Virus record (IMG/VR): IMGVR_UViG_3300025164_000611
Length of the DNA stretch: 40,577 nucleotides
Direction: 5' to 3' (one strand)
Source of the DNA: a virus
The position numbers and the translations under genes were made by a program. Shown here piece by piece: positions 1-28,700 of this stretch (position 1 is the stretch's first letter; each line of letters starts with the position of its first letter). The notes below the pieces were generated by a model that was not told the DNA's origin, searched no databases, and saw only the letters and a program-made list of their open reading frames with translations.

Positions 1-1
1 C

Positions 2-334
2 AATGGAGCTGGGTTAGGTGAAGGGGAAAACCGAAATGTTACAATCCCTAAGACCTTCAGAGATGGCTCTAACAGGGTTCCATACGTTTCATCGCAGGCT
101 TGGAAAAGATGGTTGCGAAACACGTTAATTGAAGAAACAGGGTGGCCAGCTAGTGAACTAAAGGCTATTGACCAATCGGCAAAACAAACTACCGTAAAGA
201 TTGCAGGAGAATTGGACCCGGTCAATTTTCCCGAAGATGACATATTTGGGTACATGAGAGCCGAAAAGGGACAAGGAAAACGCCGATCCGAAAATGAGGA
301 GACAGAAAATAGCAATAGCCTTAAGCAAAGCTAG
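2..334 (+). pseudogene. cas7: Type I-B Cas7 (Cst2/DevR family) N-terminal fragment, 5' partial at the window edge and ending at a premature TAG
   Basis: The frame is open from nt 2 and reads NGAGLGEGENRNVTIPKTFRDGSNRVPYVSSQAWKRWLRNTLIEETGW...DPVNFPEDDIFGYMRAEKGQGK. PYVS.Q..K.WLR.TL and P..+..DD+FGYMRA are recognised Cst2/DevR motifs. The ORF track starts it late, at 113. Confidence 0.8.
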
Positions 335-356
335 AAAAAAGGGAGCAAAAGTATGA
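294..356 (+). pseudogene. 3' remnant of a small basic phage gene (AIALSKAR..GAK motif, DUF6496-like)
   Basis: Reads MRRQKIAIALSKARKKGAKV*. Its TGA overlaps the ATG of the next gene (gtATGA). The frame is closed by a TGA at 255-257. Confidence 0.45.
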
Positions 357-1069
357 AAAAGTTAATTGTTATTCCCGTACTACTCTTTGTTTCTTTAGTT
401 GCTCAGGCACAACCCAATTTCAGAGCACCAAGAAATACTAGAGTTGTATTATTACAGCAAGTTCCAGACTCCATACAAGTTGAAGTCTCTTGGAATCATT
501 CCACTCCGAGATCTCTTGTAAGAGGTTATATTGTAAGTGTAGAAACTCCTTCGTGGATTTTATCTGATACAGTGCCAGCAGATCAGAATGCAGATTCGCT
601 ATGGATTCATCGAGATACTGTAGATGTTTCGGTGGAATTTAGAATTATTGCTCTAACAGATGGTGATCCTGTTGCTTCACCATTATCTACCTTTACCATA
701 CCTGCAAGTACAGTAGTTACAGCGCCTGGGAATGTTCAAGTTAAGATAATCACCTCTATTGGTATGTATCCTGATTCTATTTCTCTCGCTGGTTTAGAAA
801 GATATGATACAATACCTAGTATTGGAGATTCTATTCATTTCCTTCCAATTGGTTGGTTTGGTAAAATATCAATGGTTTGTGGTAGTTTAGATACTGGTAA
901 TAGAGGATGGATTCAAGTTGAACCTAAAGCCTCTGCTCAACCATATGGCTGGTATATGACTGATGGAGGGGCATTTATACCAGATAGCGGGTGTGGTTGG
1001 CAAAATTCATATTCAACAGATCGTAATATTGCAGATGTAACATTTAGTGACGTAGGAATAACACTATGA
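353..1069 (+). CDS. Exported protein with signal peptide and Fn3/Ig-like beta domain
   Basis: MKK + hydrophobic core + AQA/Q cleavage-like site; VEVSW...GYIVSV...VEFRIIA Fn3-like pattern; GGGAG RBS. Confidence 0.6.
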   Translation: MKKLIVIPVLLFVSLVAQAQPNFRAPRNTRVVLLQQVPDSIQVEVSWNHSTPRSLVRGYIVSVETPSWILSDTVPADQNADSLWIHRDTVDVSVEFRIIALTDGDPVASPLSTFTIPASTVVTAPGNVQVKIITSIGMYPDSISLAGLERYDTIPSIGDSIHFLPIGWFGKISMVCGSLDTGNRGWIQVEPKASAQPYGWYMTDGGAFIPDSGCGWQNSYSTDRNIADVTFSDVGITL

Positions 1070-1599
1070 TTGCTCCAGCAAATATTCGTTTACTGCGTGC
1101 TACCGGCCTTGATGATGATGGAATATCAGGAGTAGCAGGTGAAATAGGAAGAATTTTAAGTAATGGTATTCCTAATTCTTTAACTTTTGATGATATTCAA
1201 GCTGAGGCAGTATTTACTGTATTAAAAGTATATAGGCGTAAGCCTGATGCTACAAATGCTTATGTTTGTGTATCTACAAGACACAAGATATTTACTCTCA
1301 TAAAGAATGAGAATAGAGAATTTTTTAGATATAATGATCTCCCAATAGAGAGAAATGGAACTGGTTGGCCATTTAGAACTAGAATAATGAGACTGCCTTT
1401 GGTGGATAGGGAATGCGGAGATTGTGGTATTTACATGGCACAAATCAATCCTTCTAGATACTATTGTGATGATTGTTCTAAGGCGAGAAGAAGAGAAAAA
1501 CGGAAGGGGTATGATAAGAAGCGGAGAACAAAGGCTTGTGTTTCTGACCCCGTTACACAAGGAAGTAAGTATGAAACGGGAAGAGGCGAAACTGCATGA
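1066..1599 (+). CDS. Hypothetical protein with C-terminal Zn ribbon and basic helix
   Basis: CGDC...CDDC followed by KARRREKRKGYDKKRR; ATGA-coupled to the upstream gene. Confidence 0.6.
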   Translation: MIAPANIRLLRATGLDDDGISGVAGEIGRILSNGIPNSLTFDDIQAEAVFTVLKVYRRKPDATNAYVCVSTRHKIFTLIKNENREFFRYNDLPIERNGTGWPFRTRIMRLPLVDRECGDCGIYMAQINPSRYYCDDCSKARRREKRKGYDKKRRTKACVSDPVTQGSKYETGRGETA

Positions 1600-1680
1600 A
1601 TCTCTGTATTATACATTACGATAAGGACAAGAATCCATGCACAGACGCCTAACGACGGGAATGAGGATTGAGGGGGGTTA

Positions 1681-1763
1681 TAAGTAAGAGGACCTCAAAC
1701 TGGGTTGAAATACTCAGCATCTCTTGTCCTTAAGTATAATAAAGAGATGAGAGGGCTTACTTA
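1681..1763 (+). ncRNA. Predicted three-way-junction RNA/DNA structure upstream of the portal gene
   Basis: P1 TAAGTAAG/CTTACTTA plus CCTC/GAGG; P2 CTGGGT-TGAAAT-ACTCAG; P3 CATCTCTT/AAGAGATG; possible pseudoknot AGGA(C)/(G)TCCT. Confidence 0.45.
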
Positions 1764-1792
1764 AATTTTAAAAGGAAAAGGGAAACAAAAAA

Positions 1793-3721
1793 ATGCCGTA
1801 TCCAAGAGAAATATACTTGGGTGAAGTGAGAGAAGCTGAGTTGGTTCAACATATTGAGTCTGAACTAGTTCAATATTATATGGATACGAGTGAACATCTT
1901 GATGATTTAATTCAATGGCAATCTGATTACTGGGCTAAACCTACAAAGAAGCAGGCTATTTTTCCATTTAAAGGAGCTTGTACAACTGTAATTCCTGTTA
2001 CAGCTATTGCTGTAGAAGCAATTCATGCTAGAACAGAGACACAATTGTTTGGACAACAACAGTTAGTTGCTGCGCAGTCTATTTCTAATGAGTGGGATGA
2101 GGCCCAGAAGCCTCTTGAAGATTTTATGAATTATTATTTATTTAGGAAAATAAAGATTAAAAGTGAACTTTCTTCTTGTTTTCTAGAGGCTGAAAAATTT
2201 GGTACTATGATTGGTAAACCTGGTTATGAGAGAGTTGTTAGATATGGTGCAAGAGAAATTAATGGTGAGGAGAAAAATTTCTCAGTTGTATACAAAGATG
2301 GTCCTTGTTTTGATGCAATTCCTGATTCTAGATTCCTTTATCCTTATTGGGCTAAAGATGTTCAATCTTCAGATTGGGTTGGGGAGGAACATAGTGAATC
2401 TCCGTATTATATTTATCAAGCGGAAAAAGCAGGATTATTTAGAGAGGGTATATATGAGGATTTAATGATATATATGGAGAATCAGATGTCAGGTTCTCCT
2501 GGTGATGATGGTAAGAAGTTTGATCGTAGCCAGATGGATTTGGAGCATACAAAATATAGTATAGGGAAAAATCTTGAGTGGATTGAGTTTTGGACAGCGT
2601 GGGAAGTGGATAGTAGTGATGTTAAGAAAGAAATAGTTATTCATTACCATAGAGATTCTCGTAAAATTATGTCGATTAGATATAATTATTTATCTGATCT
2701 TCGTCGTCCTTATCGTATAGGTAAATATTTCCCAGTAGAACATAGAAGTCGTGGTATTGGTATTTGTAAGATGAATGAGCAGTTCCAGCGTTCTATTACC
2801 ACTAGGCATCGTCAGTTTGTAGATAATGCTACTCTTGCTAATATCAGGATGTTTAAGATTCATAAGTTATCTGGATATGGAAATGGCGAGCCTATCTTCC
2901 CAGGGAAGATGTGGTTCTTAGATAATATGGATCAAATAGATACAATACAGATGGGTGAGGTTTATCCCTCTGCTTATCAAACAGAACAATCCGATGTAAT
3001 TTATTCTCAACAGAGGACTGGAGTTAATGATGTAACTCTTGGTATGCCTCAAGTTGGTACTCCAGGAACTGCAACTTCTGATTTAGCAAGAATCCAAGAA
3101 GGAAATAAGAAGTTTGATCTGTGGTATATGAGGGTTAGAGATTTTGGTGATGAAGTTATTATGGATATTGCTGATCTATACCAACAGTTTGGGCCAAGGA
3201 ATCTTGAATATTTCTATACGGCTGCTGGTGGTGAAATGGTTAGAGCATTTATGCAATTACCTTCATCTTATATCAGAGAAGGGATTATTATTAATCTGAA
3301 AGTGTCATCTCAAGTTCATAATAAGGTTCTTGATCGTCAAAATTGGCAACAAATTGCTGGATTTTTGAATCAATATTATCAAGGTTTAGCTCAATTAGCT
3401 ATACCTCTTGGTAACCCTCAAATGATTCAATTGATTTTCACTAAAGGCTTAGGTGCCTTAACTGAGGCTATGAGACAGATTCTTGAGACATATGATGTTA
3501 GGAATATTGATAGAATTATTGTAAAAGAACTTGATTTGATGTTAAAGGGTCAGATTCCATCTATACTTGGAGGAGGTAATGGACCTCTCCCGCTACCTAG
3601 TGGAGCCCAACCAAATAATAGAGTTACAGGAGCTGGTGAAGCGACCGGAATGGAGCAACTTTTATCACTTATTACAGGAAATAGAGAAGGAGGCGGCGGA
3701 AACGGTTCTAGAATCTCCTGA
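1793..3721 (+). CDS. Portal protein (head-tail connector)
   Basis: 642 aa; first gene of the head module; podoviral portal-like segments (YFPVEHRSRGIGI, VDNATLAN, QRTGVNDVTLG). Confidence 0.85.
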   Translation: MPYPREIYLGEVREAELVQHIESELVQYYMDTSEHLDDLIQWQSDYWAKPTKKQAIFPFKGACTTVIPVTAIAVEAIHARTETQLFGQQQLVAAQSISNEWDEAQKPLEDFMNYYLFRKIKIKSELSSCFLEAEKFGTMIGKPGYERVVRYGAREINGEEKNFSVVYKDGPCFDAIPDSRFLYPYWAKDVQSSDWVGEEHSESPYYIYQAEKAGLFREGIYEDLMIYMENQMSGSPGDDGKKFDRSQMDLEHTKYSIGKNLEWIEFWTAWEVDSSDVKKEIVIHYHRDSRKIMSIRYNYLSDLRRPYRIGKYFPVEHRSRGIGICKMNEQFQRSITTRHRQFVDNATLANIRMFKIHKLSGYGNGEPIFPGKMWFLDNMDQIDTIQMGEVYPSAYQTEQSDVIYSQQRTGVNDVTLGMPQVGTPGTATSDLARIQEGNKKFDLWYMRVRDFGDEVIMDIADLYQQFGPRNLEYFYTAAGGEMVRAFMQLPSSYIREGIIINLKVSSQVHNKVLDRQNWQQIAGFLNQYYQGLAQLAIPLGNPQMIQLIFTKGLGALTEAMRQILETYDVRNIDRIIVKELDLMLKGQIPSILGGGNGPLPLPSGAQPNNRVTGAGEATGMEQLLSLITGNREGGGGNGSRIS

Positions 3722-3920
3722 AAATAAGTTTATAGAAAATAAACATTTTAGGAGAGGTATTAAGTTTGTGTTGGATTTGGTGGAGTCTTTAAACCCAACT
3801 AAGTTACAGGAGCTAAAGAAAGAAAATGAGCACAAAAGAAAAGGAAATTCCGAAAGTGGAGGGAACACATTCGGAGGAATCAATCCAGGAGACGAAGTCC
3901 CAAGAAGATCCGCCTATTGA
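3579..3920 (+). CDS. Small head-module protein overlapping the portal 3' end and scaffold 5' end
   Basis: GGAGGAGG RBS before ATG 3579. Helical EW..F...L.E.E...L...RG+ pattern resembles small post-portal podovirus proteins. Confidence 0.6.
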   Translation: MDLSRYLVEPNQIIELQELVKRPEWSNFYHLLQEIEKEAAETVLESPENKFIENKHFRRGIKFVLDLVESLNPTKLQELKKENEHKRKGNSESGGNTFGGINPGDEVPRRSAY

Positions 3921-4623
3921 GGTAACAGTAGATCCAAATTATGTATCGTCTCTTGAACAGAGATTAGCAGAACAGCAGGTTCAGTATCGTAGGTTAGAGA
4001 AGTTGATTGATAATGTAAAACAGAGTAAGGAAGAAGTTTCTGCTCCGACTCCGAAATCTAGAAATGTTGAAGAAGAAAGAAAAAGTTTTTATGAAGATCC
4101 TACTGGTGCTCTTGATGCTAGGGATGATAAGATTTTGAGGCAGATGGAAAAGATGTTAGAACCTATTAAGCGTGTTGCTTCTTCATTTCAGAATGATAGT
4201 GAATATAGGAATTTAAAACTATTGATTAAACAAGATCCTTATTTTGGAAAAGGGATGAGAGATCCTGATGTTGAATCTGCTGTTGATACTATTATGAATC
4301 AACCTGGGGTTGAGATTAATGAAAATAATATTAAATCTGCTATCTCTCAAGCTGTTGGTATGAAACAAATGGGAATGTTGGGTTCATCTAGATCATCTAA
4401 TACTACAACAATAAATGAGTCAATTGATCCCCCACATGTTAGAACCACTAGAACTAGAGTGGTAAAGGAAACTGATGTGAGAAAAGAATTGACTGAAGAT
4501 GATAGACTTGCTATGAAAATTGCTGGATTGAAACCTGGTAATCCAGAACATGAGAAACAATATTGGGAGTTAATTGAAGATGAAACTATGGTTCTTCCTG
4601 TTCATAAGAAGAAGGAGAAATAA
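3826..4623 (+). CDS. Putative capsid scaffolding protein
   Basis: Charged coiled-coil protein located between portal and capsid genes. Confidence 0.6.
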   Translation: MSTKEKEIPKVEGTHSEESIQETKSQEDPPIEVTVDPNYVSSLEQRLAEQQVQYRRLEKLIDNVKQSKEEVSAPTPKSRNVEEERKSFYEDPTGALDARDDKILRQMEKMLEPIKRVASSFQNDSEYRNLKLLIKQDPYFGKGMRDPDVESAVDTIMNQPGVEINENNIKSAISQAVGMKQMGMLGSSRSSNTTTINESIDPPHVRTTRTRVVKETDVRKELTEDDRLAMKIAGLKPGNPEHEKQYWELIEDETMVLPVHKKKEK

Positions 4624-5226
4624 ATGTCTGATTCTCTTTTTACCAAATATCGTCCTAATGAGCCTGTAAGGGATTATGATGATAAATCAGAAGTTATTGA
4701 GCAAGGTTTAGATCCGAAAATAGCTGAACGTATTAAGAAGGCTGAACGTGGTGAGTTGAGGGCTAAGTTAGCTTCGATTTTAGATAGAGGAATAGTCCAG
4801 GATAGGTTATCGGTAGAACTTCCAGAAGATTTGCATGGTGAATGGGTTAGAAATGATCCTCTTGAGATTCGTAGATTAGAAACTTTAGGTTTTAGAATTG
4901 ATAATGAATATGCTGTTAAGAGAGCTATCCATTCTGATGGTACTAGTAGCGCTATTGTTGGTGATGTAATTCATATGATTTGTCCAAAGGAAGTTAAAGA
5001 TGTAATTAGTGAGATTCGTATTGAGAGGATGGTTAGGGAACATGCTGGTAAAAGAACAGGTAAGAGTAATGTCAATAAGGAAGAACGGGAGTTGTTGACA
5101 GATGTTAATAAGTTCCGTGATTCAGGTGTATCTGCTTTCATCAATTCTTCTGAGAGGCCGGCTGGGAATAAGGAATTAGCTGATATTGTAAAATCTATCG
5201 ACTCACAGACGAAAAAGTTTGAATAG
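4624..5226 (+). CDS. Conserved head-module hypothetical protein
   Basis: W+R....+..GF ... VGD+++M..PKE pattern recalled from podoviral head clusters; position. Confidence 0.55.
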   Translation: MSDSLFTKYRPNEPVRDYDDKSEVIEQGLDPKIAERIKKAERGELRAKLASILDRGIVQDRLSVELPEDLHGEWVRNDPLEIRRLETLGFRIDNEYAVKRAIHSDGTSSAIVGDVIHMICPKEVKDVISEIRIERMVREHAGKRTGKSNVNKEERELLTDVNKFRDSGVSAFINSSERPAGNKELADIVKSIDSQTKKFE

Positions 5227-5234
5227 GAGATAAA

Positions 5235-5765
5235 ATGCCTAGAGTTTTCATTCCTGCTACTGGAGCCAAGACAGTTCCTACTGTTCGTTCTGCTGTTTAT
5301 GATGTAGCAGAAACGTTCTTAAAGGGAGCTGTTCTTGGTACAAATGCAGATGGGGAAGTTATTGAGTTGACTACTGGTGCTGGTGTTGTTGATGTTGTTG
5401 GTGTAGCACTAGAAGATGTTGCTTCAAAGCCTGGTTGGAATGCTGCAAATGATGATAAGATTGTTTGGCGTACTGGTGTTGTTAGAGAAGTTTCTATTGT
5501 TGATCTTATTGAAGATCCTAATCAGATCTTTAGTGGTAGGTTAACTACTGCTGCTGGAGTTGATGTTGCACCTACACAGAGTCATATTCTTGAATCTCGT
5601 GGATTACTTCTTCTTGCTAGTGGAGAGTGGACTGTTAATGATGATAATGTAACAAATGATGCTGTTCAGATTGTTGATATTGTTGTTCGTGATAGTGTTG
5701 CTGGTAGTTATGTATTATTCAAATTCTTGGCTTCTGTTATCGCTGCTTCCGCTAACATTTCATAA
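5235..5765 (+). CDS. Putative capsid cement/decoration protein
   Basis: Val/Gly/Ala-rich beta protein immediately upstream of the major capsid gene; VVGVA motif. Confidence 0.55.
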   Translation: MPRVFIPATGAKTVPTVRSAVYDVAETFLKGAVLGTNADGEVIELTTGAGVVDVVGVALEDVASKPGWNAANDDKIVWRTGVVREVSIVDLIEDPNQIFSGRLTTAAGVDVAPTQSHILESRGLLLLASGEWTVNDDNVTNDAVQIVDIVVRDSVAGSYVLFKFLASVIAASANIS

Positions 5766-5780
5766 GGGAGAAAATACAGA

Positions 5781-6695
5781 ATGAACACACAGGCATCGCT
5801 AAACCTGCTTTTCAGGGCTGGATTACGGAAAAATTTCAGGGACACCTGGAATGAGTACGATCCAGAATACCCTGAGTATTTAAAAGTAGATAATACTGAT
5901 GAGCCAGAGATTCGGGCTACTATTATTACATCTATTTCTCGTTTAATGGAACGAGGAGATGGTGAGCCAGTTATTTATGATGATATTATTCAGGGACCAC
6001 AGGTTATTGGTGTTGATAAGGAATTTGCTGGTGGTATTATTATCACTCGTCGTACTTTAGAGGATGATAAGTACGGTAAGGCCAATCAATCAGCAAAGCA
6101 TCTTGCTCATGCTGGTCGTATGACTTATGAGTATAGGGCTGCTTCTATTCTTGATGATGCCTTTACTGGTGCTTTCTTCCGTGGTATTGATAATCTTCCA
6201 TTAATTTCTGTTCTACATACCAATCTTAACTCACCAGCTCTTAATCCTAATCGTCCTGCTGCTGATGTTTCTCTTTCGGTTACTGGTATTACGGCTTTGT
6301 TAGATTTGGCTCAGAGAGTTACAGATCATAATGGTGATCCTATTCGTATGTCTCCTGATAAGTTAATTGTTTCTAACAATGCTGCTGATGTGAATACTGC
6401 TCTTGCTATTTGGAACTCTGCTCTGGAGCCGTTTACTCCTAATAACACTGACAATGTAATTCGTCGCCGTATTCCTAATCCTACTATTGTTATTTCTCAC
6501 TACAAGGATCTTACAAGTCGTTCGTATTTCTTACAGGATAGTCGTTATAATGATGCATTCCTTAGTGTTAAAAGAGCCCTTGAGTTTGATGATACTTTCG
6601 ACTTTGATACTCAAGCTGCAAAAGCTCAGTCTACTACTAGATTCCTTATTATGTTCGTTGATTACCGCGGTTGGTGGGGTGCTGATCCTACTTGA
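5781..6695 (+). CDS. Major capsid protein (HK97 fold, Mu gpT-like family)
   Basis: 304 aa; ITRRTLEDDKYG, GDPIRMSP.KL+V and C-terminal DYRGWWG patterns; GGGAG RBS. Confidence 0.85.
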   Translation: MNTQASLNLLFRAGLRKNFRDTWNEYDPEYPEYLKVDNTDEPEIRATIITSISRLMERGDGEPVIYDDIIQGPQVIGVDKEFAGGIIITRRTLEDDKYGKANQSAKHLAHAGRMTYEYRAASILDDAFTGAFFRGIDNLPLISVLHTNLNSPALNPNRPAADVSLSVTGITALLDLAQRVTDHNGDPIRMSPDKLIVSNNAADVNTALAIWNSALEPFTPNNTDNVIRRRIPNPTIVISHYKDLTSRSYFLQDSRYNDAFLSVKRALEFDDTFDFDTQAAKAQSTTRFLIMFVDYRGWWGADPT

Positions 6696-6728
6696 ATATT
6701 AACATCTATATAGATAAGGAGAACAGAG

Positions 6729-6998
6729 ATGACTCTACTTGGGAGATCAGGTGAGTATCATACATATCCACCTTTAGAATCAGCAGTAATTGCAGGTGGA
6801 GCAGCTGGAGATTTAACTGTTACTGGTATTAAGACTTCTGACACACTGAAACTTGTTCAAAGAGTTGATGCTGCTGGAGCAAATTTAGCTAGTGAGTTTA
6901 CTATTACAGCCGCTGATACTGTTAACAATACTGGTGGAACGGATACAACTGGAATGCTACTTTTATTTGTGTGGTATAGTGCAGAGCTAGGACTATGA
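6729..6998 (+). CDS. Small virion structural protein (putative)
   Basis: Gly/Thr/Ala-rich, directly after the capsid gene, AGGAG RBS. Confidence 0.55.
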   Translation: MTLLGRSGEYHTYPPLESAVIAGGAAGDLTVTGIKTSDTLKLVQRVDAAGANLASEFTITAADTVNNTGGTDTTGMLLLFVWYSAELGL

Positions 6999-7231
6999 AT
7001 ATAGTTTTACTACAAGCGGCTTCTGGTCCTGATATTAATGGCCCAGTTGTTAGGGTTCCACCAGGAAATTATGATATTGAAAGAAGTGGAGTTTTTGAAA
7101 GTTGTTTAATGTTCTTAAATAAAGCATCTATTCCTCTTAATGGTCAGGTTCTATTAAGTAATCATACTTCTGTTAAATTACAAGCGAAGAATGCAAAAGA
7201 TTTAACTGTTAAATTCGTTCGAACAATATGA
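6995..7231 (+). CDS. Hypothetical protein
   Basis: ATGA-coupled ORF in the head module. Confidence 0.55.
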   Translation: MNIVLLQAASGPDINGPVVRVPPGNYDIERSGVFESCLMFLNKASIPLNGQVLLSNHTSVKLQAKNAKDLTVKFVRTI

Positions 7232-7239
7232 TGAGGGTG

Positions 7240-7268
7240 GTAGGGGTATAGTGAATCTATATCCCTAC
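7240..7268 (+). terminator. 12-bp hairpin between head and tail modules (attenuator or processing site; no U-tract)
   Basis: GTAGGGGTATAG-TGAAT-CTATATCCCTAC. Confidence 0.35.
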
Positions 7269-7293
7269 AAACCCCAATTGGAGGAAGTAAAAG

Positions 7294-7956
7294 ATGCCGA
7301 TGGCTATTGCTGATATGAGGCTAGGAGTTACTAGACCTTTAGGTGTTAATGTTGGTGGAACACAAATGCCCACTGATCAAGTTGATCTTTATTTGAATAG
7401 AGCATTCTGGGAAATTCAAAATAAATATCCTCTTAGAGAAAGGCAAGCTATTTCAACATTTTTAACAACCATTGGTGTTCGTAATTATGATGTATCATTT
7501 CCAACTGAATCTGTAGATCATATTGCAATCACTGAGAAAAGTTCTGGTCAAGGTCAACATTATCCTTTGATTCAAATTACTAGAGATGTATATGAGCAGA
7601 AGTATGCAGATACTGAGGATCAGTGGGATATTCCGGTTGAGTATGTAAGAGAAGCTTGTATTGTACGCTTATGGCCTACACCTGATGATGAGTATACTAT
7701 TACAATTAGAAGAAATGTTGCGCTTACTGATCTTAGTTCTATTCAATCTTCATCCATAATCCCACAAGTTTGGGATGAGATAATTGTGATGGGTGGTTTA
7801 TGGAGAGCTTGTGTTGATCTTGGTGATGTTGCTAGGGCTAATTTCTTTAAAAGTCTCCAGAGTGAGATGATTAATACAATAGTTCCGACTGAAGCTAATG
7901 AAGCTCAATCCAATTCTCAACTTGCTCATGTAGAAGTTCTTGGGTTGGAGTACTGA
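7294..7956 (+). CDS. Head-tail adaptor / tail tubular protein A-like
   Basis: 220 aa; YLNRA.WEI, RLWPTPDD.YTITI and WDEII+MG.L patterns; position; GGAGG RBS. Confidence 0.7.
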   Translation: MPMAIADMRLGVTRPLGVNVGGTQMPTDQVDLYLNRAFWEIQNKYPLRERQAISTFLTTIGVRNYDVSFPTESVDHIAITEKSSGQGQHYPLIQITRDVYEQKYADTEDQWDIPVEYVREACIVRLWPTPDDEYTITIRRNVALTDLSSIQSSSIIPQVWDEIIVMGGLWRACVDLGDVARANFFKSLQSEMINTIVPTEANEAQSNSQLAHVEVLGLEY

Positions 7957-8378
7957 TGAATAACGAAGTGAAAAATGGGATTATTCCTTCAAGTAATAAG
8001 GAGTTTTGGATTCTCTTAAGAGGTCTGCCTTATCATCTTCAATTTTTTGTTGCTGTGGTTTTGATAGCTAGTGTTATTGGTATTCCAAATGGTGTTTATT
8101 CATTTGTAAGAAATGATGGTGTTAGAGCGTTAACAGATTCGTTGGCTATAAGGGTAGATAATATTGAACATGATTTATTTGATCATGCAAAACAGAATAA
8201 TGATTTAGTTGCAAGAGTTGATTCTGTAGCTGGATTGGTTTTGCGTTATGGAGAAAGTCTTGATTTCCTTTGGTGTTTGAATGAAAAGTCTGAACTTCCA
8301 GAAGTTAGAACGTATTGTGGTGAACTTAGAGATGATATAAGAGACGCATTAAAAATAAGAGCTGGTGTTGCGAGATAG
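7956..8378 (+). CDS. Membrane protein with coiled coil (holin- or spanin-like candidate)
   Basis: Hydrophobic FFVAVVLIASVIGI segment, then a heptad-like region and two Cys. Confidence 0.4.
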   Translation: MNNEVKNGIIPSSNKEFWILLRGLPYHLQFFVAVVLIASVIGIPNGVYSFVRNDGVRALTDSLAIRVDNIEHDLFDHAKQNNDLVARVDSVAGLVLRYGESLDFLWCLNEKSELPEVRTYCGELRDDIRDALKIRAGVAR

Positions 8379-8397
8379 TACCGGAAAGGGAGTAGAG

Positions 8398-9453
8398 ATG
8401 CTTAGATTCTTTTGCAGTTTTGATGGTTTCAAGATTAGAGAACATCTTGATGGTAGATTTACAAGAGGTTCTACCAGTACAGCAATTGATATTATAACAA
8501 CTGCTGGTAGAAATGGTAAAGGTGCATTATATCTTGGTGAGATTGGACCAGATGTAAATGGTGTCTCGTTTGAACTTCCTTCTGGACCACATACATCTGG
8601 AATAGTTTTGGGTATTGCTTATAAAAGATATAGCTCTCCACCTGCACGTCTGACAGGTATTTTTACATTAAAGAACTCTGGTGGGTCTAAAATCTTTACG
8701 TTACTTAAGAATGCTGGTGGATATTTAGAGGCTAGAAAAGGTTCCTCAATAGGAACACTTTTAGGTACAGGAGTTATTAATATAGATAATGGAACCTGGT
8801 ATTTTATTGAACTTAAACTAACAATTCATGCTTCAACTGGAACAGTGGAAGTTCATGTTGATGGTGCAGAAGATACTCCATTAACATTAACTGGTCAAAA
8901 TACGGAAGGTGCTACTGGTGGAGCTACACAATGTACTTTACATGGTATACATTCTGCGTATGAAGTTGTTGGCTTCTTATTTGATGACCTTTACTTCGCA
9001 GATGCTGTTGCTGGAATCGTAACTGATTTTGTAGGTAATTGTCAGTCTACAGTAACAGTTCCAGCAGCAGAAACGGCACAAATAGAATTTACACCTTTAA
9101 GTGGCACTGATAATAGTGATATGGTAGATGAAGCACTTCCTAATGACGATGTTGACTATAACCAATCTACTACGTCTGGGCATAAAGATAGATTTACTGT
9201 AGTTCCTCTTGGGTTGTCAGGAGTAGAAGTATTAGGAGTTAGTGTTACCTCGATAGCAAAAGAACCATCTGCTGGAGGTTCTCAGATAAAGAATGTATTG
9301 AAATCAGGAACAACAGAGGAATCTGGAGATGCTAAGACTTTAAATACTGACTATAAGTCTCAGACACATTTGTGGGAAGTAGATCCAGATACTTTAGTAC
9401 AATGGGTTCCTGCTGATGTTGATGGTGTTGAAATTGGATATGAGCTAGTATAA
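8398..9453 (+). CDS. Tail/fibre protein with ConA/LamG-like beta-sandwich
   Basis: WYFIELKLTI...GTVEVHVDG and FDDLY motifs. Likely start is ATG 8398, after GGGAG. Confidence 0.6.
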   Translation: MLRFFCSFDGFKIREHLDGRFTRGSTSTAIDIITTAGRNGKGALYLGEIGPDVNGVSFELPSGPHTSGIVLGIAYKRYSSPPARLTGIFTLKNSGGSKIFTLLKNAGGYLEARKGSSIGTLLGTGVINIDNGTWYFIELKLTIHASTGTVEVHVDGAEDTPLTLTGQNTEGATGGATQCTLHGIHSAYEVVGFLFDDLYFADAVAGIVTDFVGNCQSTVTVPAAETAQIEFTPLSGTDNSDMVDEALPNDDVDYNQSTTSGHKDRFTVVPLGLSGVEVLGVSVTSIAKEPSAGGSQIKNVLKSGTTEESGDAKTLNTDYKSQTHLWEVDPDTLVQWVPADVDGVEIGYELV

Positions 9454-11523
9454 ATGTCTGAGGCAAGATTAACCTCTGCTCAGTTAGAAGTTTTAACTAA
9501 AGCTAATGCTGCTCGAATTACTTCTACTCAGTTAGAAGTATTATATAGGGCAGCGGGAAGTGGTTCAGCTAGAATAACATCTACTCAGTTAGAAGTTTTG
9601 TATATTTCAGCAGCTATTAAAATATCTGGTATTGCTGTAGATCCAACACAAAATGATATTATTATAATTGGAGATTCTGGTGCTCCCGTTTCATATGATC
9701 TACATAGATCATTAACACCAGGATTTACTCTAAATGTGGGAAATAAAATTCAGGCAGGAATTACTCCAACTGGGTTACCACAAACCTTATCTGATCTTAC
9801 AATAACTGATGTTGATTGGTATTTCTATAAAGTAGTTGAAAATAATGCTGGGGGGACATTAGTTAGCAATGAAATAGCTATTGAATCTCTAGGTTATGGA
9901 ACTCCACCAGTTTTGTCTGTATCTAATACAACTGGAACAGAAGCGCTTTTAAGTGTTCATTTAGATCCAATATACACAGAAGTTCATTATGTTATAGCTC
10001 TAGATGTAGATCCATATTATCTATCTCTTATTTTCGAAGTGTCTGATACATCTAGCAGTAGATTCCTTGTTCTAGCTACAGGTTTAACAAATGGAGTGAC
10101 ATATAGAGCTAAAGCAAATTGGTTAGGACCATTAGGTTGGAGTGGATATTCTAATGAAGTTGTATTCTTATCAGCAGCGACTATTTCACCAGCTACGTTT
10201 GATACAATAGTTAGACCAAAGTTTGGTGAGACAATTAGAGGCACATATATAGTTACTTGGCCTTCACTTCAAGGTGGAGAAGTTGCTGATTTAAATATTA
10301 GTGATGATTTAGGAGCTACATGGACTAATCTAGCTAGTGGTTTAACTGGAACAACTTATTATTTGAATACACTTCTTTACGCAAATGGTGTCGATTATCT
10401 ACTTAGGATTACAGGAGATCTAGGAACTGTATACTACCAACTTTGCTTTTATATTGATAATGCTACAGCTGGTGATTATTACTGGCATGATGATTCTGGT
10501 TATGATGTTGATGTATATGATCCGACTAAATTTGTAAAGGCTTTGAATGTTAATGGTAACTGGCAGGGTCATATTACAGGTACAAATTTTGCTATGCTTG
10601 CTCAAGGTGGAGGAACTGATTTATCTCTTTTATTAGCTAAGGCAATACAAAGACATACTGATTTAGATATAACAACTAATGCTTTAGCTGATAGTGGTGA
10701 AGGTGGTTATCCTTGGGCACTATATTGGGCAGCAGAAGGTTTGGAATTTGGTGTTGCTGGACTTGTCAACAATTATCTAGGTGTTGGGGCATTTATTTTT
10801 ACTGGATTAATATGGCCTTATGGAACATATCCAGCAATATATGGTCCAGGTCCAGAAAAAGGATCTTCTACTAGTTCAAAATTTGTAGTTCAACTTGCTT
10901 CAAATAACTTTGGTAGTGCTTATCCTTTAGCGCAACATATTTCCTTAGCACGTAATCTTCCTAGAATATATACAAGACAACGTGGTTATTATGATATGCC
11001 ACTTTACTCAATTAGGTTAAAAGTTACACATCCAGATAGAACTAATTTTCCTTATAGAGTTAGAGTAAGAGCCACTACATTTGGTCCGGGCCTACTTTTA
11101 CCAGTAAACTTTGTTTCTGATTATTGGTTAATAGATGAAACGTTTGATCTAACAGCTTCAATACCACCATTTACTGAGTATCCTTTTGATTGTGGTTGTG
11201 CTGGTGCTTTAGGTGGAAAAATTCATGGTTCTAGTGATGAAGGTAGAGCTGAGTATTCTACTTTAGGTGCAGCTGTACTTGACGTTGATTGTATTGATCT
11301 TGGTGGAAGTGTTTGTACTGGAGTACCTGTAGTACCTGTAGTTAATCCAAATTATCCAATACCAGTAAAAGGCCCAATACCATGTATTGTTTGTGCTGTG
11401 ATTCCTAATTTTGTTGGTGATTCTGCTACTTTAATTCTTGGATCTGATACTGAGAATTGTGGATCTATACTAGTATCTTCAGACGATGATAATGGCCTTC
11501 CTGTTAATTATAAGTGTGCATAA
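9454..11523 (+). CDS. Tail fibre/spike with N-terminal repeats and Fn3-like domains
   Basis: Three AR(L/I)TS(A/T)QLEVL repeats; GLTNGVTYR and DYLLRITG Fn3-like strands; Cys-rich C-terminus. Confidence 0.65.
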   Translation: MSEARLTSAQLEVLTKANAARITSTQLEVLYRAAGSGSARITSTQLEVLYISAAIKISGIAVDPTQNDIIIIGDSGAPVSYDLHRSLTPGFTLNVGNKIQAGITPTGLPQTLSDLTITDVDWYFYKVVENNAGGTLVSNEIAIESLGYGTPPVLSVSNTTGTEALLSVHLDPIYTEVHYVIALDVDPYYLSLIFEVSDTSSSRFLVLATGLTNGVTYRAKANWLGPLGWSGYSNEVVFLSAATISPATFDTIVRPKFGETIRGTYIVTWPSLQGGEVADLNISDDLGATWTNLASGLTGTTYYLNTLLYANGVDYLLRITGDLGTVYYQLCFYIDNATAGDYYWHDDSGYDVDVYDPTKFVKALNVNGNWQGHITGTNFAMLAQGGGTDLSLLLAKAIQRHTDLDITTNALADSGEGGYPWALYWAAEGLEFGVAGLVNNYLGVGAFIFTGLIWPYGTYPAIYGPGPEKGSSTSSKFVVQLASNNFGSAYPLAQHISLARNLPRIYTRQRGYYDMPLYSIRLKVTHPDRTNFPYRVRVRATTFGPGLLLPVNFVSDYWLIDETFDLTASIPPFTEYPFDCGCAGALGGKIHGSSDEGRAEYSTLGAAVLDVDCIDLGGSVCTGVPVVPVVNPNYPIPVKGPIPCIVCAVIPNFVGDSATLILGSDTENCGSILVSSDDDNGLPVNYKCA

Positions 11524-11876
11524 TGGAACCTAGAGAAAATATTAAGGGAGAAGTTAATTTTGAGGACATGACCTCTAGGAATGTCTTGGAGAAGAAAAAT
11601 GTTCAAAATATGTCTGGTGAAACTCCTAGTGTATTGAATAAATCATTTTTTGTTGGAGCTAATTCTTCTCCTATTAATGTTACAGATTTCTTGAATGGTG
11701 CCCCAGGACAGAGATTATATATTTTGGGTGATGGAAACATGACAATTGTTAATGGTGTTTTGGTATTTACTAACACTGGAGCGAACAAGTTATTAGCAAT
11801 CAATAAAGTATATCGATTTACCTTCTTTCAGATAGAGGGGCCACCACGTTCACATATATGGGTGGAGGATGAATGA
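11523..11876 (+). CDS. Small tail-associated beta protein
   Basis: TAATG coupling to the fibre gene; VTDFLNGAPGQRL.I+GDG...W+E pattern resembles fibre C-terminal modules. Confidence 0.5.
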   Translation: MEPRENIKGEVNFEDMTSRNVLEKKNVQNMSGETPSVLNKSFFVGANSSPINVTDFLNGAPGQRLYILGDGNMTIVNGVLVFTNTGANKLLAINKVYRFTFFQIEGPPRSHIWVEDE

Positions 11877-12214
11877 GAATAGAACAATGGGGTTATTTAA
11901 AATATTTTGGTTCATCAGAGTTTAAAGATCCTGAAAAAATGGATTATGATTTTCTCTTAAAATTGGACAAAGCTAGAGGGATAGCTGGTATACCTTTTGT
12001 ATTAAATTCAACTTATCGTGCTAAAGATAAGCTATCTCATGGTAAGGGTTTAGCTGTTGATATTAATTGTACGACTTCAGTTGATAGACTTAAGATTGTA
12101 TCGTCTCTAATTGAAGTTGGTTTTGTTAGAATTGGTATATATAATAAACATATCCATGTTGATTGTGATAAATCTCTACCTCAAAATGTAATGTGGTGGG
12201 GAACTAGCAAGTAA
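11873..12214 (+). CDS. Peptidase M15 family endolysin
   Basis: STYR, SHGKGLAVDI (SxHxxGxAxD-like) and HIHVD zinc-ligand motifs. Confidence 0.85.
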   Translation: MRIEQWGYLKYFGSSEFKDPEKMDYDFLLKLDKARGIAGIPFVLNSTYRAKDKLSHGKGLAVDINCTTSVDRLKIVSSLIEVGFVRIGIYNKHIHVDCDKSLPQNVMWWGTSK

Positions 12215-12223
12215 GGAGAAATA

Positions 12224-12772
12224 ATGCCAGGATATACGAATCCTTGGTCTGATACTGATCCACCTGGATCTCAGAATGCTAATACTATTGATGATGAATT
12301 TAGGCAATTGAGATTAGATATTCATGAAAGGATGGATGATATTGTTGATGATTGGACTGATGATCCTGTTGTTTTATCTGGGGCTGCTGGTTCTATTGGA
12401 TCTTCTGAGAGATGTGATTATTTAGATGCTTCTCCTGGTGGAAATAAAGCTGCTAATCTTGTTGATATTAAATCCCATATGTTTGTAGCTTATGTTGGAA
12501 CTACTGGTAGTGGTGGGGGAGTTCTTATTAATATTAATGAAATAAGTATTTTAACTGGTATTGTTTGGAACATAACTACACACGGTCTTAATATTATTTT
12601 AATGGATGGTCGTAGGACTTCTGGTCAAGTTCCAGTATTTATGACAGTTGTTGGAGCTAGCGGTATAACGAATATATTTACTTTACAATTCCAATATGGT
12701 GATGGGGCTTTAGTAAATAATATACCAATTAACTGTACATTTCTTATCACAGCTCAAGTTACTCCTACATAA
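12224..12772 (+). CDS. Tail protein (fibre-anchor-like N-terminus)
   Basis: P.GS.NA.TIDD..RQL+.D+.ERM N-terminal motif; AGGAG RBS. Confidence 0.55.
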   Translation: MPGYTNPWSDTDPPGSQNANTIDDEFRQLRLDIHERMDDIVDDWTDDPVVLSGAAGSIGSSERCDYLDASPGGNKAANLVDIKSHMFVAYVGTTGSGGGVLININEISILTGIVWNITTHGLNIILMDGRRTSGQVPVFMTVVGASGITNIFTLQFQYGDGALVNNIPINCTFLITAQVTPT

Positions 12773-12773
12773 T

Positions 12774-14471
12774 ATGCCTAGAAATAGAAAGATTCTTAGG
12801 AATAGAACCATCAGAGAGTGGTCTGGTGGTGAGCAAACTTTTAAGAAACCTAATATAAGATTAGTGAAATTGATAACATCTAGGATTAATAGAGGTATGA
12901 TTACTTCTATTGATTCTACTGATATTCCAAGAGAAGCTCTACAATTAGCTAAGAATACTAAAGTTGTATTTGATAAAACTAGCCGTAGAGATGGATTATC
13001 TTCATTTGAAAGTGCAGCTGATAATTCTCCAGTTCTCAAGATGTCGTTTTTGAAATCTCCAGATGGGACAGGTCATACATATAGGTTTACTCCGGATTCT
13101 ATTTATGATCTTCAATCTTCTATATGGAATCCAATAACTGAGACTGTACCTTTAATTGGAACAGTTAATGATAGATTCAATGTAGCGACAGTTTTTGATA
13201 TTTTTGCATTTACTAATAATGGCGCAAATGCTGTTCAATGGATTGATTCGACCCTTGATGTTTCAGATGATTTGATTGATAATTATTTTGAGTATGCAGA
13301 AGGGGCTGAATTTAGATATTGTACAGGATTTTACAATAGGATTGTTTTAGCTGCTCTGAGGGAACAAAATGAAGTTTTACTTGCTTGGACTGGGGAATAT
13401 GGTTCTAAAGCTACAGCTAAACATGGTTTAGAGGACTTAGATCCTCTTGTTAATGAAACTAGTGGATTTTCACCTTTAGTAGATTCCCCAAGTGATGTTG
13501 GTGATTTTATTACAGGGGTATTTGGTCTTACATCTATTATGGTTATCTTAAGAGAAAAGAGTATTTGGCTTGCTACTAAACAAGCATCTTTTTCCAATCC
13601 ATTCAATGCCTATGCGGCTGTTCCAGGTGTTGGTTGCGATTCTCCTTTTAGTACTAAAGTTACCAGATATGGATTATCTTGGTTAGATCGACGTTCTCGT
13701 ACAGTTTATCATTATACTCCAGGTGGAACTCCTGAACCTATTGGTAGACCTGTTGAGAAAAGTATTATTAATAATATTACAGACCCTGATATTGTATTTG
13801 GTGCTTATGATCCTATTGAAGATTCATACTCAGTCTGCATTCCTGCTGTTGGTTCAGGGATAGTTAGAGCATGGACGTATTATTTCCAAGCGCAGGCTTG
13901 GACTTATAATGAATATAATGAAATCTCTTCATTTGATACAATTGAGTTGCTTACTGGATATGTTGCTATTGATGATCTTGTTGGTACAATGGATGGTTTA
14001 ATTGGTACGATTGATGGATTATCTCCTGTTGTACAGGGTGTACCTCAGAGAATATTTGGATTTACTGATGGTACATTAGCTATCCCTGATCCTAATGCTG
14101 ATACTGATTTAGGAGTAGAGTTTGAGACTGATTTAGTATCTGCGGCCTTCATGTTGCCTGGTGATGATATATATGTAGCCAATGTAGTTGTTGAATACAA
14201 TATGAAATTGCCTGGAACTTTAGAGTTCTGGTATGCTCCTGATGGTGGTGTTGATATATATAGGTCTCTCATGCCAACATCCTTTATATTAGGTGATACT
14301 TTTACACCTACTGTTTTGAATAAACCTCAAATATTTACATTCAAGCGTGTTATCCATAGTAGAAGGTATGCTTTTTCGATTAGGGCTTTTAGAGGTCAAT
14401 TTGATATTCTTGGATATGAAATTTGGGTAGCTGGTGCTGGTGATGTATCTATGATAAGGCAAGTCCCATGA
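12774..14471 (+). CDS. Tail nozzle / tubular protein B (P22 gp10 / T7 gp12-like)
   Basis: 565 aa beta-propeller-like protein; GVGCDSPFS, GRPVEK and AYDP....YSV motifs; position. Confidence 0.75.
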   Translation: MPRNRKILRNRTIREWSGGEQTFKKPNIRLVKLITSRINRGMITSIDSTDIPREALQLAKNTKVVFDKTSRRDGLSSFESAADNSPVLKMSFLKSPDGTGHTYRFTPDSIYDLQSSIWNPITETVPLIGTVNDRFNVATVFDIFAFTNNGANAVQWIDSTLDVSDDLIDNYFEYAEGAEFRYCTGFYNRIVLAALREQNEVLLAWTGEYGSKATAKHGLEDLDPLVNETSGFSPLVDSPSDVGDFITGVFGLTSIMVILREKSIWLATKQASFSNPFNAYAAVPGVGCDSPFSTKVTRYGLSWLDRRSRTVYHYTPGGTPEPIGRPVEKSIINNITDPDIVFGAYDPIEDSYSVCIPAVGSGIVRAWTYYFQAQAWTYNEYNEISSFDTIELLTGYVAIDDLVGTMDGLIGTIDGLSPVVQGVPQRIFGFTDGTLAIPDPNADTDLGVEFETDLVSAAFMLPGDDIYVANVVVEYNMKLPGTLEFWYAPDGGVDIYRSLMPTSFILGDTFTPTVLNKPQIFTFKRVIHSRRYAFSIRAFRGQFDILGYEIWVAGAGDVSMIRQVP

Positions 14472-15046
14472 TTTTTGAATGTTCATGTAAAGAGCATGGA
14501 ATATTCATTAATAGAACTGTTTGGTTGATGGATTATTCTGTTGATAATTTGAGGAAATTGTGGGAAAAATCTAGTGAACATAGAATACTTTTCTCTGATG
14601 ATGTAAATGGTAATTTTCAAAAGTTTTGTAGCATATTCCTATCTCAAGATCCTAATACTGGTAATTTGTTTTCTAATGGTTTAGTTTGGGTTGTAGACGA
14701 TTTTGTTGGTATATTATTTATGTCTCAGATTCATGGAGATGAGGCTCTACTTCACTTTTCATTTTTCGATGGAAGATTGCGCTATGATATATCGAGGAGA
14801 ATGATTGATTATATTTTCTCAGAATATAAATTTAATAGATTAAATGCTGAAATTGTGCCATTTGCATCGAAAAGAGTATTTAGTTTTATAGAAAGTTTAG
14901 GTTTTAGGAGAGAAGGTAAGAAAAGAAAAGCCCTTTCATATAAAGATGAAAGATTTGATTTACTACTTTACGGATTACTAAGAGAGGAGTTCTACGAATG
15001 GGATACAAAGAACGTACCGTTGGAGGTGGCCCAGCTAAGGGTTTAG
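14468..15046 (+). CDS. GNAT-family acetyltransferase (T7 gp13-like position)
   Basis: FIESLGFRREG...DLLLYGLLREE RimJ-like GNAT signature, between nozzle and ejection genes. Confidence 0.75.
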   Translation: MIFECSCKEHGIFINRTVWLMDYSVDNLRKLWEKSSEHRILFSDDVNGNFQKFCSIFLSQDPNTGNLFSNGLVWVVDDFVGILFMSQIHGDEALLHFSFFDGRLRYDISRRMIDYIFSEYKFNRLNAEIVPFASKRVFSFIESLGFRREGKKRKALSYKDERFDLLLYGLLREEFYEWDTKNVPLEVAQLRV

Positions 15047-15714
15047 CTAATGATTTTGTAAGTTTTTTACAGAATTTTATTACTAGTGGTAAATTTGGTG
15101 GAGCTGAAACTAGAGGTGGTATAGGTGGCTCATCTGCTACATCTCAGTTTAATGCTGAGAATCCTATGGCAGATAGTGCTGGTATTTTTGGGTTATTAAA
15201 TTCTATTATATCTAATCCCCAAGCTGACAAGAGTGTACAGGATCTAATATCTAAGGATGTTGAGCGTGGCAGGAACGATCTAAGGGCTAGGTTTGGGGCC
15301 AGTGGTGGTATGGCCTACGGGTCGCCCGCTGCGTTCGCTGAGTCCCTATATCAAGCTGAGCAAGCCCCTAGAACGGCCTTGGCCTTGGATCAGATGGCCC
15401 AGTCAAGAATCGGGTCTTTAATGCCATTTTTTCAAATGTTAATGAATACATCTTCTCTTGGGATTCCGCAAGCTCAAACTACAATGGAACCTAGTAAGTG
15501 GATGCAGGGATTCAATATGCTTCTAGATACAGCTAATACTGTTGCTAATTTTATTCCTTTTGCTGGTGGAGGAGAGACTAATGCTAGAGCAGCTAGTATG
15601 CCAGTTCCAAAACCGGCTATGGTTCAGCAAAGTATTAATAATCCTATGCCTTATGTTAGACCAGAAAATTTAAGATTTATTCCTACTCCTTCTAGTTCTC
15701 CAGGATGGGCATAA
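14998..15714 (+). CDS. DNA ejection/pilot protein (putative)
   Basis: Gly/Ala/Met-rich helical protein; position after the GNAT. Confidence 0.55.
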   Translation: MGYKERTVGGGPAKGLANDFVSFLQNFITSGKFGGAETRGGIGGSSATSQFNAENPMADSAGIFGLLNSIISNPQADKSVQDLISKDVERGRNDLRARFGASGGMAYGSPAAFAESLYQAEQAPRTALALDQMAQSRIGSLMPFFQMLMNTSSLGIPQAQTTMEPSKWMQGFNMLLDTANTVANFIPFAGGGETNARAASMPVPKPAMVQQSINNPMPYVRPENLRFIPTPSSSPGWA

Positions 15715-15715
15715 G

Positions 15716-16990
15716 ATGCCTGTTACTATACTTCCCGGTGTTGATGAGTACCTCCGCCCAGGAATTGAGAAGTTAGGTGATACTATTTCTCTATTTACAG
15801 AAACTGATAGAAGAACACAAAGAGCTATTAGGAATATGCTCATTGAAAATCCATCATTAATTCAACAGTTTGCAGACTTAGAACATAAAACTCCAGGATC
15901 ATTAAAGAAGATGGGTTTTGGTAGTGTATCAGATTTAATCTCTGGAGTTGGTCCTTCTCTTGAATTACAAGAGCAAGAGAGACTTGGTGGTAAGAAATTG
16001 GATGTTTCAGAAAAAAGATTAAATCTTGAAGAAAGACAGATAGGTCTCGAAGAAGAAAGTATTGGTTTTAAGGAAATTCAGAATCAGATGTTGAAAGATT
16101 TATTGAAAGCTAATCCTAAATTAACAGAAGATCAGGGTAAGTCTGCGGTTGCTCAATTTATGGGTGTTCCAACTGAGAAAGAAATAGAAGCATCAGGTTA
16201 CGAATTAGATATTGCTAAGATGAATGCAACTAGAGCTACTAGATTACAAGAGTTGATGGATAAGGGATTAGATAAAGAAGGTCCTATGTTTAGTTATGTA
16301 GCCAAATTTAGAGCTGGTCAAGATGATCCTAATGAAACGGCTGCAATTTTAGCTGATCCTATTTTGGGTCAACAGTTCCAATTATTGTATGAGTTACAAA
16401 ATGAAAGAGAAGCAAAAATCAATAAAGAGACTGGGAAAGTTCCAACTGCTATTTCAGATTTGCCAGTAGCTATTCAAGGTCAGTTTGCTCAAATTGCTCC
16501 TGTTAGAGATTCTTTTAGTCATTATAGTGATAAAGTTCAAAAATTTATGGCTTTACCAAGTTCTGAAAGATTAGCTGCATTAGTAGGAGCTGGATCTCAC
16601 CAACAGGAATTGGGTGAATTGAGGAGCTTACAGAGTGGATTAATGGGTACATTTAGACCCTTACTTTCTCCTGGGCCTTTGTCTGTTGCTGATATGAGAA
16701 TGTTAGAGAATATGCTTGGTAATGTATTATCAACATCTTCTTTCGTTAGAGGTAAAGAATATGTTGATGGCCAGTTAGAAGGTGTACAGAGATTTATTGA
16801 ATCTAAAATCCAAGGATTAACTACAATATATCCAACTGTAAAAGTTCCAAAGACACCAGTATCTCAGATTCCTACTGATATGATTGATAAAATGATAAAA
16901 GATGGTATGACAAATCAACAAATAATGAATGAACTTAGCAGGAGAGGTTATGATGTTAGTGGACTTACTTCTATTGGGGTAGGAAAATGA
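15716..16990 (+). CDS. Internal virion/ejection protein (putative)
   Basis: Helical, coiled-coil-rich 424 aa protein in the ejection cluster. Confidence 0.55.
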   Translation: MPVTILPGVDEYLRPGIEKLGDTISLFTETDRRTQRAIRNMLIENPSLIQQFADLEHKTPGSLKKMGFGSVSDLISGVGPSLELQEQERLGGKKLDVSEKRLNLEERQIGLEEESIGFKEIQNQMLKDLLKANPKLTEDQGKSAVAQFMGVPTEKEIEASGYELDIAKMNATRATRLQELMDKGLDKEGPMFSYVAKFRAGQDDPNETAAILADPILGQQFQLLYELQNEREAKINKETGKVPTAISDLPVAIQGQFAQIAPVRDSFSHYSDKVQKFMALPSSERLAALVGAGSHQQELGELRSLQSGLMGTFRPLLSPGPLSVADMRMLENMLGNVLSTSSFVRGKEYVDGQLEGVQRFIESKIQGLTTIYPTVKVPKTPVSQIPTDMIDKMIKDGMTNQQIMNELSRRGYDVSGLTSIGVGK

Positions 16991-18216
16991 GTACTCCTAA
17001 GAGCAACCTGTATGATTTATTTTTTGATGCAGCAACTACACAATATGATCTACCAGCAAATCTACTTCGACAAGTGGCTAGATTTGAATCTAATTTTGAT
17101 CCTGAGGCAATTAGTTATAAGGGTGCTGTTGGATTAATGCAAATAATTCCTTCTTTGCATCCAGATGTAGATCCAACCGATCCATATGCTTCTATTGATT
17201 ATGCAGGTAAATTATTAAGTGATCTCCATAAACAATTTGGGTCTTGGGATCTCGCTTTAGCTGCTTACAATTCTGGACCTGGGAATGTTAAGAAATATGG
17301 GGGTGTTCCTCCATTTGAAGAAACACAGAATTACGTTAAGAATATTTTAGGTAGTTTAGATAATGTAAGTACTGAAGAAGGTAGAAGTGCTTTTGAGTTA
17401 TTATTAGAAAAAAGAAGAAAAGAATTGAGTATTACTAATCCTACACCAGGATCTCAATTACCAGCTGAGATTCCAGAAGAAGGTAGGGGTCTTATTTCTA
17501 AAGCTCTTGGTTTTGTAGGAAGTGGTATTGATAAAATACAAGAGCGTCGGCAGCAACAATTAGAATCAATGTCACCTGAACAACGTAGAACGTATGATGA
17601 ATTACAAAAATATTCTAAGCATGATATTGGACCTTTATCATGGGTATCTCCAGGTGGTGTTGGTTTTGCTTCTAGAGCTTCTAGACTTGGAATTATTAGG
17701 AGATTTTCTCCTTTTAGAAGGAGTGGATCAAAGCTATCTGGTGCGGTAGAAAAAATGTCATCCTCTAGACCACATGGGGTAGCTGAGGATGTTCTTAGAT
17801 TAGAAGAATCATCTAAAGTAATTGCTTCCCTTGAAACTAAGGGATATAATATTTGGACTAAAAGTTTGGGTGGCAAAAATCCTTCAGAGTTTGCTAAATT
17901 GATGGGTGAAATGACTTCTGCTGAAAAACCTATTGCTCAAAAAGGTATGTTATTGTCTTTACAAGAGAATCTTGCTAATATGAGTAGGTTGAGTAGAGAA
18001 GCACAACAAAATTTAATGTCTCCTGCTGGTAAACTTAGGTTACAAGCGACTTTTGATGGATTACCGTCAGAACACCTTGAATATTTCAATAGATTGGTAG
18101 AAACAGGACAATATCAAAGACTTACTAGGTGGTTAGGTGTTGTATCCTTAGCTTATCCTTGGGCACGTAAGGTTGGTAGGAGTGTACTAGAAAGACTTGA
18201 AGGAGGAATTTACTGA
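16987..18216 (+). CDS. Internal virion protein with N-terminal SLT lytic transglycosylase
   Basis: FESNFDPEAISYKGAVGLMQI and LALAAYNSGPGNV motifs. Confidence 0.88.
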   Translation: MSTPKSNLYDLFFDAATTQYDLPANLLRQVARFESNFDPEAISYKGAVGLMQIIPSLHPDVDPTDPYASIDYAGKLLSDLHKQFGSWDLALAAYNSGPGNVKKYGGVPPFEETQNYVKNILGSLDNVSTEEGRSAFELLLEKRRKELSITNPTPGSQLPAEIPEEGRGLISKALGFVGSGIDKIQERRQQQLESMSPEQRRTYDELQKYSKHDIGPLSWVSPGGVGFASRASRLGIIRRFSPFRRSGSKLSGAVEKMSSSRPHGVAEDVLRLEESSKVIASLETKGYNIWTKSLGGKNPSEFAKLMGEMTSAEKPIAQKGMLLSLQENLANMSRLSREAQQNLMSPAGKLRLQATFDGLPSEHLEYFNRLVETGQYQRLTRWLGVVSLAYPWARKVGRSVLERLEGGIY

Positions 18217-22398: not shown

Positions 22399-22612
22399 CT
22401 AACGATTCTATTGCCTCAGTTAGTGTATTTTTTTCTTCTTTAGTTAATTTACCTATATTTTCTATACACCACTTAATATAATTAGGATCATCGTACACAA
22501 CATCTAACCAACTCCAATCTTTATATTTACCAAATTTAATTGTTGAATTTAAGAACTCATCTGGTTCGAATTCAAACGGGCTTCTACCTTCTCTCATTTT
22601 CGCCTTCTTCAA
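22388..22612 (-). CDS. Small FGKY-motif protein (exonuclease X C-terminal / DUF3820-like)
   Basis: IKFGKYKD....V...DPNYIKW. Confidence 0.6.
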   Translation of the reverse strand: MKKAKMREGRSPFEFEPDEFLNSTIKFGKYKDWSWLDVVYDDPNYIKWCIENIGKLTKEEKNTLTEAIESLDER

Positions 22613-28687: not shown

Positions 28688-28700
28688 TTTGTTCTTCTCC

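Follow-up and report, generated by a model that had tools for sequence, protein, structure and literature searches.

The question at the left end of the record

Virus record IMGVR_UViG_3300025164_000611 opens inside what reads as a CRISPR-associated gene and passes directly into virus genes. The question is whether a virus has acquired part of a type I-B cas7, whether it has inserted into one, or whether two genomes have been run together in assembly, these being the readings offered by a first-pass annotation made from the sequence. The window analysed here is the whole stretch of 40,577 nt, and the features around the join are as follows.

2 to 334, plus strand: the open frame as reported, made of 103 native Cas7 codons, 7 out-of-frame virus codons and TAG
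1 to 289, plus strand: cas7-only DNA from parent 1, spanning codons 24 to about 119 in an archaeal type I-B Cas7 of 370 aa, 100% identical to L003 113-401
290 to 310, plus strand: the exact 21-mer GAAAATGAGGAGACAGAAAAT, common to both parents, with the crossover inside it
291 to 356, plus strand: 3' remnant (21 codons and a stop) of a 60-aa virus ORF, translating to KMRRQKIAIALSKARKKGAKV, with its 5' part missing from the window
311 to 7298, plus strand: virus-only DNA from parent 2, 99.9% identical to L002/L006

The open frame and its Cas7 identity

The frame runs for 110 codons from the window edge, where it is open, to a TAG at 332-334. It contains the motifs PYVSSQAWKRWLRNTL and DDIFGYMRA, which had been recognized at first pass as those of a Cst2/DevR Cas7, with a profile search named as the check. 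That recognition was sound: NCBIfam TIGR02585 (type I-B Cas7/Cst2/DevR) matches with E = 1.7e-20 over profile positions 12-102 of 321, and its 73.3 bits narrowly exceed the curated cut-off of 72.75. Pfam gives weak matches to DevR and Cas_CT1975, both below their cut-offs, so that with Pfam alone the Cas7 call would stay under threshold and it is NCBIfam that settles it.

The native part of the frame covers residues 24-126 of the 370-aa Cas7, ending after about the first third of the protein, as had been judged from the position of the stop. That placement holds, but the TAG is not the boundary that it was taken for. The cas7-only DNA ends at 289, the next 21 bases belong to both parents, and the frame's last 7 codons (SNSLKQS) come from an out-of-frame reading of virus DNA. 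The cas7 seems to be truncated in its variable loop because the shared 21-mer happens to sit there. A full-length RAMP protein of this kind has about 320-370 aa, against the 103 native codons found in the window, and the window holds no start codon for the Cas7 N-terminus. A cas operon would place the gene beside cas8b and cas5; here, virus genes lie downstream of the Cas7 piece and there are no cas neighbors in the window.

The composition also changes near this point. Bases 1-289 have a GC content of 46.0% and 41.5 CpG per kb, compared with 35.4% and 13.5 per kb for the rest of the window, and only 0.75% of equal-sized stretches elsewhere in the window reach either value. The enrichment in GC and in CG dinucleotides noted for the first ~300 nt is therefore real. 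The values resemble those of L003, the contig carrying the cas7 parent (GC 42.4%, CpG 35 per kb), and not those of the virus.

Two intact parents

L003, a JGI soil metagenome contig, was reached by searching for longer Cas7 proteins with the 96 cas7-only residues as the query, which returned hundreds of full-length Cas7 of about 360-370 aa. The named sources among these relatives are MAGs of Nitrososphaerales, Nitrososphaera and Bathyarchaeia. The top match, P0001 (370 aa), is 100% identical to the Cas7 piece and is encoded on L003, where window 1-310 equals 113-422 with 310/310 nt identities. L003 has the intact 370-aa cas7 at 45-1157, then cas5, and then the start of cas3. A 93%-identical protein, P0002, lies within a full cas locus on the NCBI MAG contig L004 in the order cas6, a 647-aa ORF, cas7, cas5, cas3, cas4, cas2, cas1, csa1; the 647-aa ORF occupies the cas8b position and has no Pfam match. 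The cas loci on L003, L004 and L005 were compared with the whole window by blastn, which found the cas7 piece only and no spacer-like matches to the virus.

The second parent is a virus whose head genes follow the join.

353 to 1069, plus strand: 238-aa ORF with a hydrophobic N-terminus resembling a signal peptide
1066 to 1599, plus strand: 177-aa ORF
1793 to 3721, plus strand: SU10-type portal (Pfam E = 2.5e-14; PHROG portal E = 6.7e-12)
5781 to 6695, plus strand: major head protein, a weak match (E = 2e-4)
7294 to 7956: virion structural protein

The portal and, on its weak match, the head protein agree with the earlier description of a phage head module beside the Cas7 fragment. Among virus records the nearest is G002 (contig L002, also numbered L006), whose positions 3248-10256 are 99.9% identical to window 290-7298; the IMG/VR contigs L007 and L008 reach 99.9% as well, their matches starting at window base 290. 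A further contig, L010 from JGI, is identical over the 60 nt on either side of the 21-mer to these virus contigs. Window 1-289 is unmatched in L002/L006, and likewise in L007, L008 and L010. It had been suggested that related virus genomes be searched for the same join. What these four contigs (L006, L007, L008 and L010), from four different metagenomes, have instead is the native virus flank, with the left side of the 21-mer reading ...CAGTCAAAAGA in all of them and not cas7. In L002, the stretch 164-3314, upstream of the equivalent of base 290, holds a large terminase gene with Ns interrupting it, together with a methyltransferase-like gene (459 aa) and a basic ORF of 60 aa. The last of these is the full version, at L002 3132-3314, of the ORF whose 3' remnant is seen in the window, and it ends in the same ...KMRRQKIAIALSKARKKGAKV. 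The virus's own terminase region is thus absent from the window.

Two further observations concern these relatives. L010 1-318 aligns to window 290-581 at only 86.8% over 318 nt, despite the identical 60 nt at the 21-mer, so the 238-aa ORF beside the join appears to vary among strains. In L008, positions 1-8987 give about 9 kb upstream of the join that matches nothing in the window, which puts the virus genome at no less than about 49 kb and makes the window an incomplete copy of it.

The shared 21-mer

The two parental alignments overlap by exactly 21 nt, at window 290-310. The native cas7 has this 21-mer at L003 402-422, and L006, L007, L008 and L010 have it on the virus side, each with its own flanks. 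It reads ENEETEN in cas7 and KMRRQKI in the virus ORF, one frame over, and since the two genes use different reading frames the overlap is not homology. The word is purine-rich and is found in two unrelated JGI metagenome contexts as well, one being L011 and the other the group L009/L012/L013, which shows that it recurs by chance; it is absent from the genome_contigs collection.

Independent contigs across the join

Twenty public runs contain part of window 1-620. Two soil runs, X1 and X2, are flagged as possible sources, with 0.99 and 0.97 of 69 sampled 31-mers, and in 15 further runs about half of the sampled 31-mers are present. Words specific to the join (9 of 590) are expected to contribute about one to such a sample, and the 0.99 of X1 would fit the case in which only that word is absent.

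The Logan contigs of X1-X4, built at k = 31, were aligned to window 1-1500. Because a 21-nt repeat is unable to merge paths at k = 31, these contigs are an independent test of the join, within the limit that contigs can drop rare variants. Among the k = 31 contigs of the four runs, there is no record bridging 289 and 311, and no joint is reported. The cas7-side contigs stop fitting at 310 and continue with CCCGAACCCGAAGAAACGGGGG, which is the native cas7 continuation except for its first base, a C in the runs and a T in L003. The virus-side contigs (up to 8.9 kb) fit from 290 and read leftward into ACCATCAACGCTTAAGAAGCAGTCAAAAGA, the native virus flank as in L006. X1 and X4 have loose ends at 290 and 310 with native continuations on both sides, and X2 and X3 have the native virus flank plus a separate cas7 contig.

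Depth gives the same account. In the bin 251-300, depth is 5.6 + 5.33 x 11/50 = 6.77 in X1 and 4.57 + 10.8 x 11/50 = 6.95 in X2, in each case the sum of the two parental contigs, so no third contig is hidden there. Contig depth on the cas7 side is 2.3-5.6 versus 5.3-22 on the virus side, up to 8-fold apart.

How the join may have been made

With a probability of roughly 0.9, we take the window to be a de Bruijn-graph chimera of two co-occurring genomes that meet at a shared 21-mer. Of the first-pass readings, the assembly chimera is thus the one that gains, from the exact 21-mer in two intact parents and from the lack of a bridging contig in the probable source runs. Likewise, the composition shift, which had been held to favor a recent join or a chimera, proves to be real, and of those two options the chimera is strongly supported.

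The left 289 bases would then be part of the intact type I-B cas7 of an archaeon present in the same soil samples, one with relatives in Nitrososphaerales and Bathyarchaeia, and would be foreign to the virus. A purine-rich 21-mer is by coincidence present in both this cas7 and the small virus ORF. A usual smallest k of assemblers is 21. An assembler that used a small k, alone or as one of its steps, may have merged the two paths at the 21-mer, and the path coming from the virus side would have entered cas7 in place of the virus upstream DNA with its methyltransferase-like gene and terminase. No molecule with the cas7-virus join need exist. Under the same account, the false join would be what lies behind the composition step, the TAG stop, and the ORF that looks like a truncated Cas7.

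Metagenome de Bruijn misjoins resemble the present case in having two intact parents in the same sample, an exact short shared word at the crossover, a step in GC, CpG and depth at the join, and a position at the contig end where independent contigs do not cross. We find no feature in which the window differs from them, with the proviso that the assembler as the maker of the join, the k involved, and hence the k = 21 step itself are what we infer.

The biology is ordinary on this account, and the practical use of the case is to caution that bases 1-289 need trimming before the virus is annotated. Left in place, they may lead to the virus being catalogued as the carrier of a cas gene or of a possible anti-CRISPR, or being assigned a host by way of cas7. 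A quick recipe for such calls is to find both parents, to measure their overlap, and to see if independent k = 31 contigs pass over the join.

Other origins for the join

The alternative that survives best is that the window comes from a real but rare recombinant virus, formed by microhomology-mediated illegitimate recombination at the 21 nt, with the 5' third of a host cas7 replacing the terminase side; we consider this improbable. An exact 21-nt identity is sufficient for short-homology recombination, so the shared word could have acted as microhomology, and both parents are found together in four runs. The evidence against a bridge is at the contig level, where low-frequency variants can drop out, yet no k = 31 contig bridges the join in any of the 4 runs, two probable sources included, and the flank is the native one in each of the four related virus contigs. 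The product would also have lost its terminase side and have a truncated virus ORF, hence would be defective.

The host bears on this alternative too. An archaeal MAG, G001 (36% GC, 1.4 Mb, 86% complete), has virus contigs in its bin, and the virus's host may be broadly similar to the owner of the cas7. Set against that, the cas7 parent contigs are at ~42% GC compared with 36% for both the virus and G001, so the cas7 owner and the organism with which the virus is binned look different. The Cas7 of the window has no match in G001 either, although at 86% completeness this does not imply that the gene is absent. That a minority of real recombinants is present in the source soil itself, having gained the 5' third of an archaeal host cas7 through the 21-nt identity, is very unlikely. 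If true, it would capture the viral acquisition of cas-derived genes at its first step.

A different proposal was that the join marks an insertion disrupting a host cas operon: a provirus or transposable virus would have entered the host cas7, and the window would run from chromosome into provirus. The window does start within a host-type gene and proceed into virus DNA, as this requires. The breakpoint on the virus side, however, lies neither at a genome end nor at an att site but inside a small ORF between packaging and head genes. There is no integrase among the ORFs tested in the replication half (DUF3987, PolA, UDG, ThyX, SNF2, PD-(D/E)XK nuclease and AAA ATPase). The same runs contain an intact cas7, and in them virus contigs continue over the breakpoint; an exact 21-nt overlap of unrelated sequences is not the trace of site-specific integration or transposition. 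These findings leave an insertion highly improbable.

Weakest is the proposal of a captured, virus-encoded truncated Cas7 acting as an anti-CRISPR by way of a faulty Cascade subunit. Its precedent is a pair of Listeria phage proteins that inhibit type I-B systems, AcrIB3, which is homologous to Cas5, and AcrIB4, which is homologous to the C-terminus of Cas8b; both are encoded by complete ORFs, share about 38% identity with the Cas protein, form clades of their own and are conserved in phages (bioRxiv 10.1101/2023.06.24.545427). The likeness is that virus genes adjoin a sequence homologous to a type I-B Cascade subunit. The difference is that AcrIB3 and AcrIB4 are diverged, complete and phage-conserved, whereas the Cas7 piece is an identical host copy (100% at the nucleotide level), incomplete at both ends, with no start codon in the window and ending out of frame in virus DNA, and present in one contig only. 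It breaks a virus ORF, is absent from the four related contigs, and has no close relative encoded on any IMG/VR contig. This reading also needs the join to be real; its probability is close to negligible.

The remainder of the virus and its possible host

G001 appears to be archaeal, since it encodes a Hef nuclease that scores above its curated cut-off, and its contigs have no match to the bacterial SSU rRNA model. Its contigs C25, C40 and C91 (L014-L017) are short, wholly viral, and 99-100% identical to window 22115-40383, the replication half; there is no G001 match to window 1-1200 or 290-20289. Either the virus infects the G001 archaeon, or the viral contigs were co-binned by composition. 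If it does infect that archaeon, the virus would belong to the head-tailed viruses of archaea and have an SU10-type portal.

The 8,987 upstream nt of L008 have no overlap with the right end of the window or with G001 contig C91, and the virus genome is not closed. C91 reaches ~160 nt beyond the window end, and ARAGORN finds no second tRNA in it. Other features observed in the window are these.

18646 to 20850, plus strand: protein of 734 aa that closes the structural module, with a GHKL-type ATPase domain (HATPase_c_3, E = 1.9e-6)
22901 to 23665, minus strand: ThyX flavin-dependent thymidylate synthase (E = 2.3e-55)
24197 to 25030 and 25145 to 26908, minus strand: family-A DNA polymerase split over two ORFs
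39999 to 40082, minus strand: tRNA-Leu (anticodon TAA)
40560 to 40577, minus strand: the last bases of the window, resembling a T-arm (GGGTTCGATTCC)

In the split polymerase, the upstream ORF has a uracil-DNA glycosylase domain fused to the 3'-5' exonuclease, and the downstream ORF has the polymerase domain.
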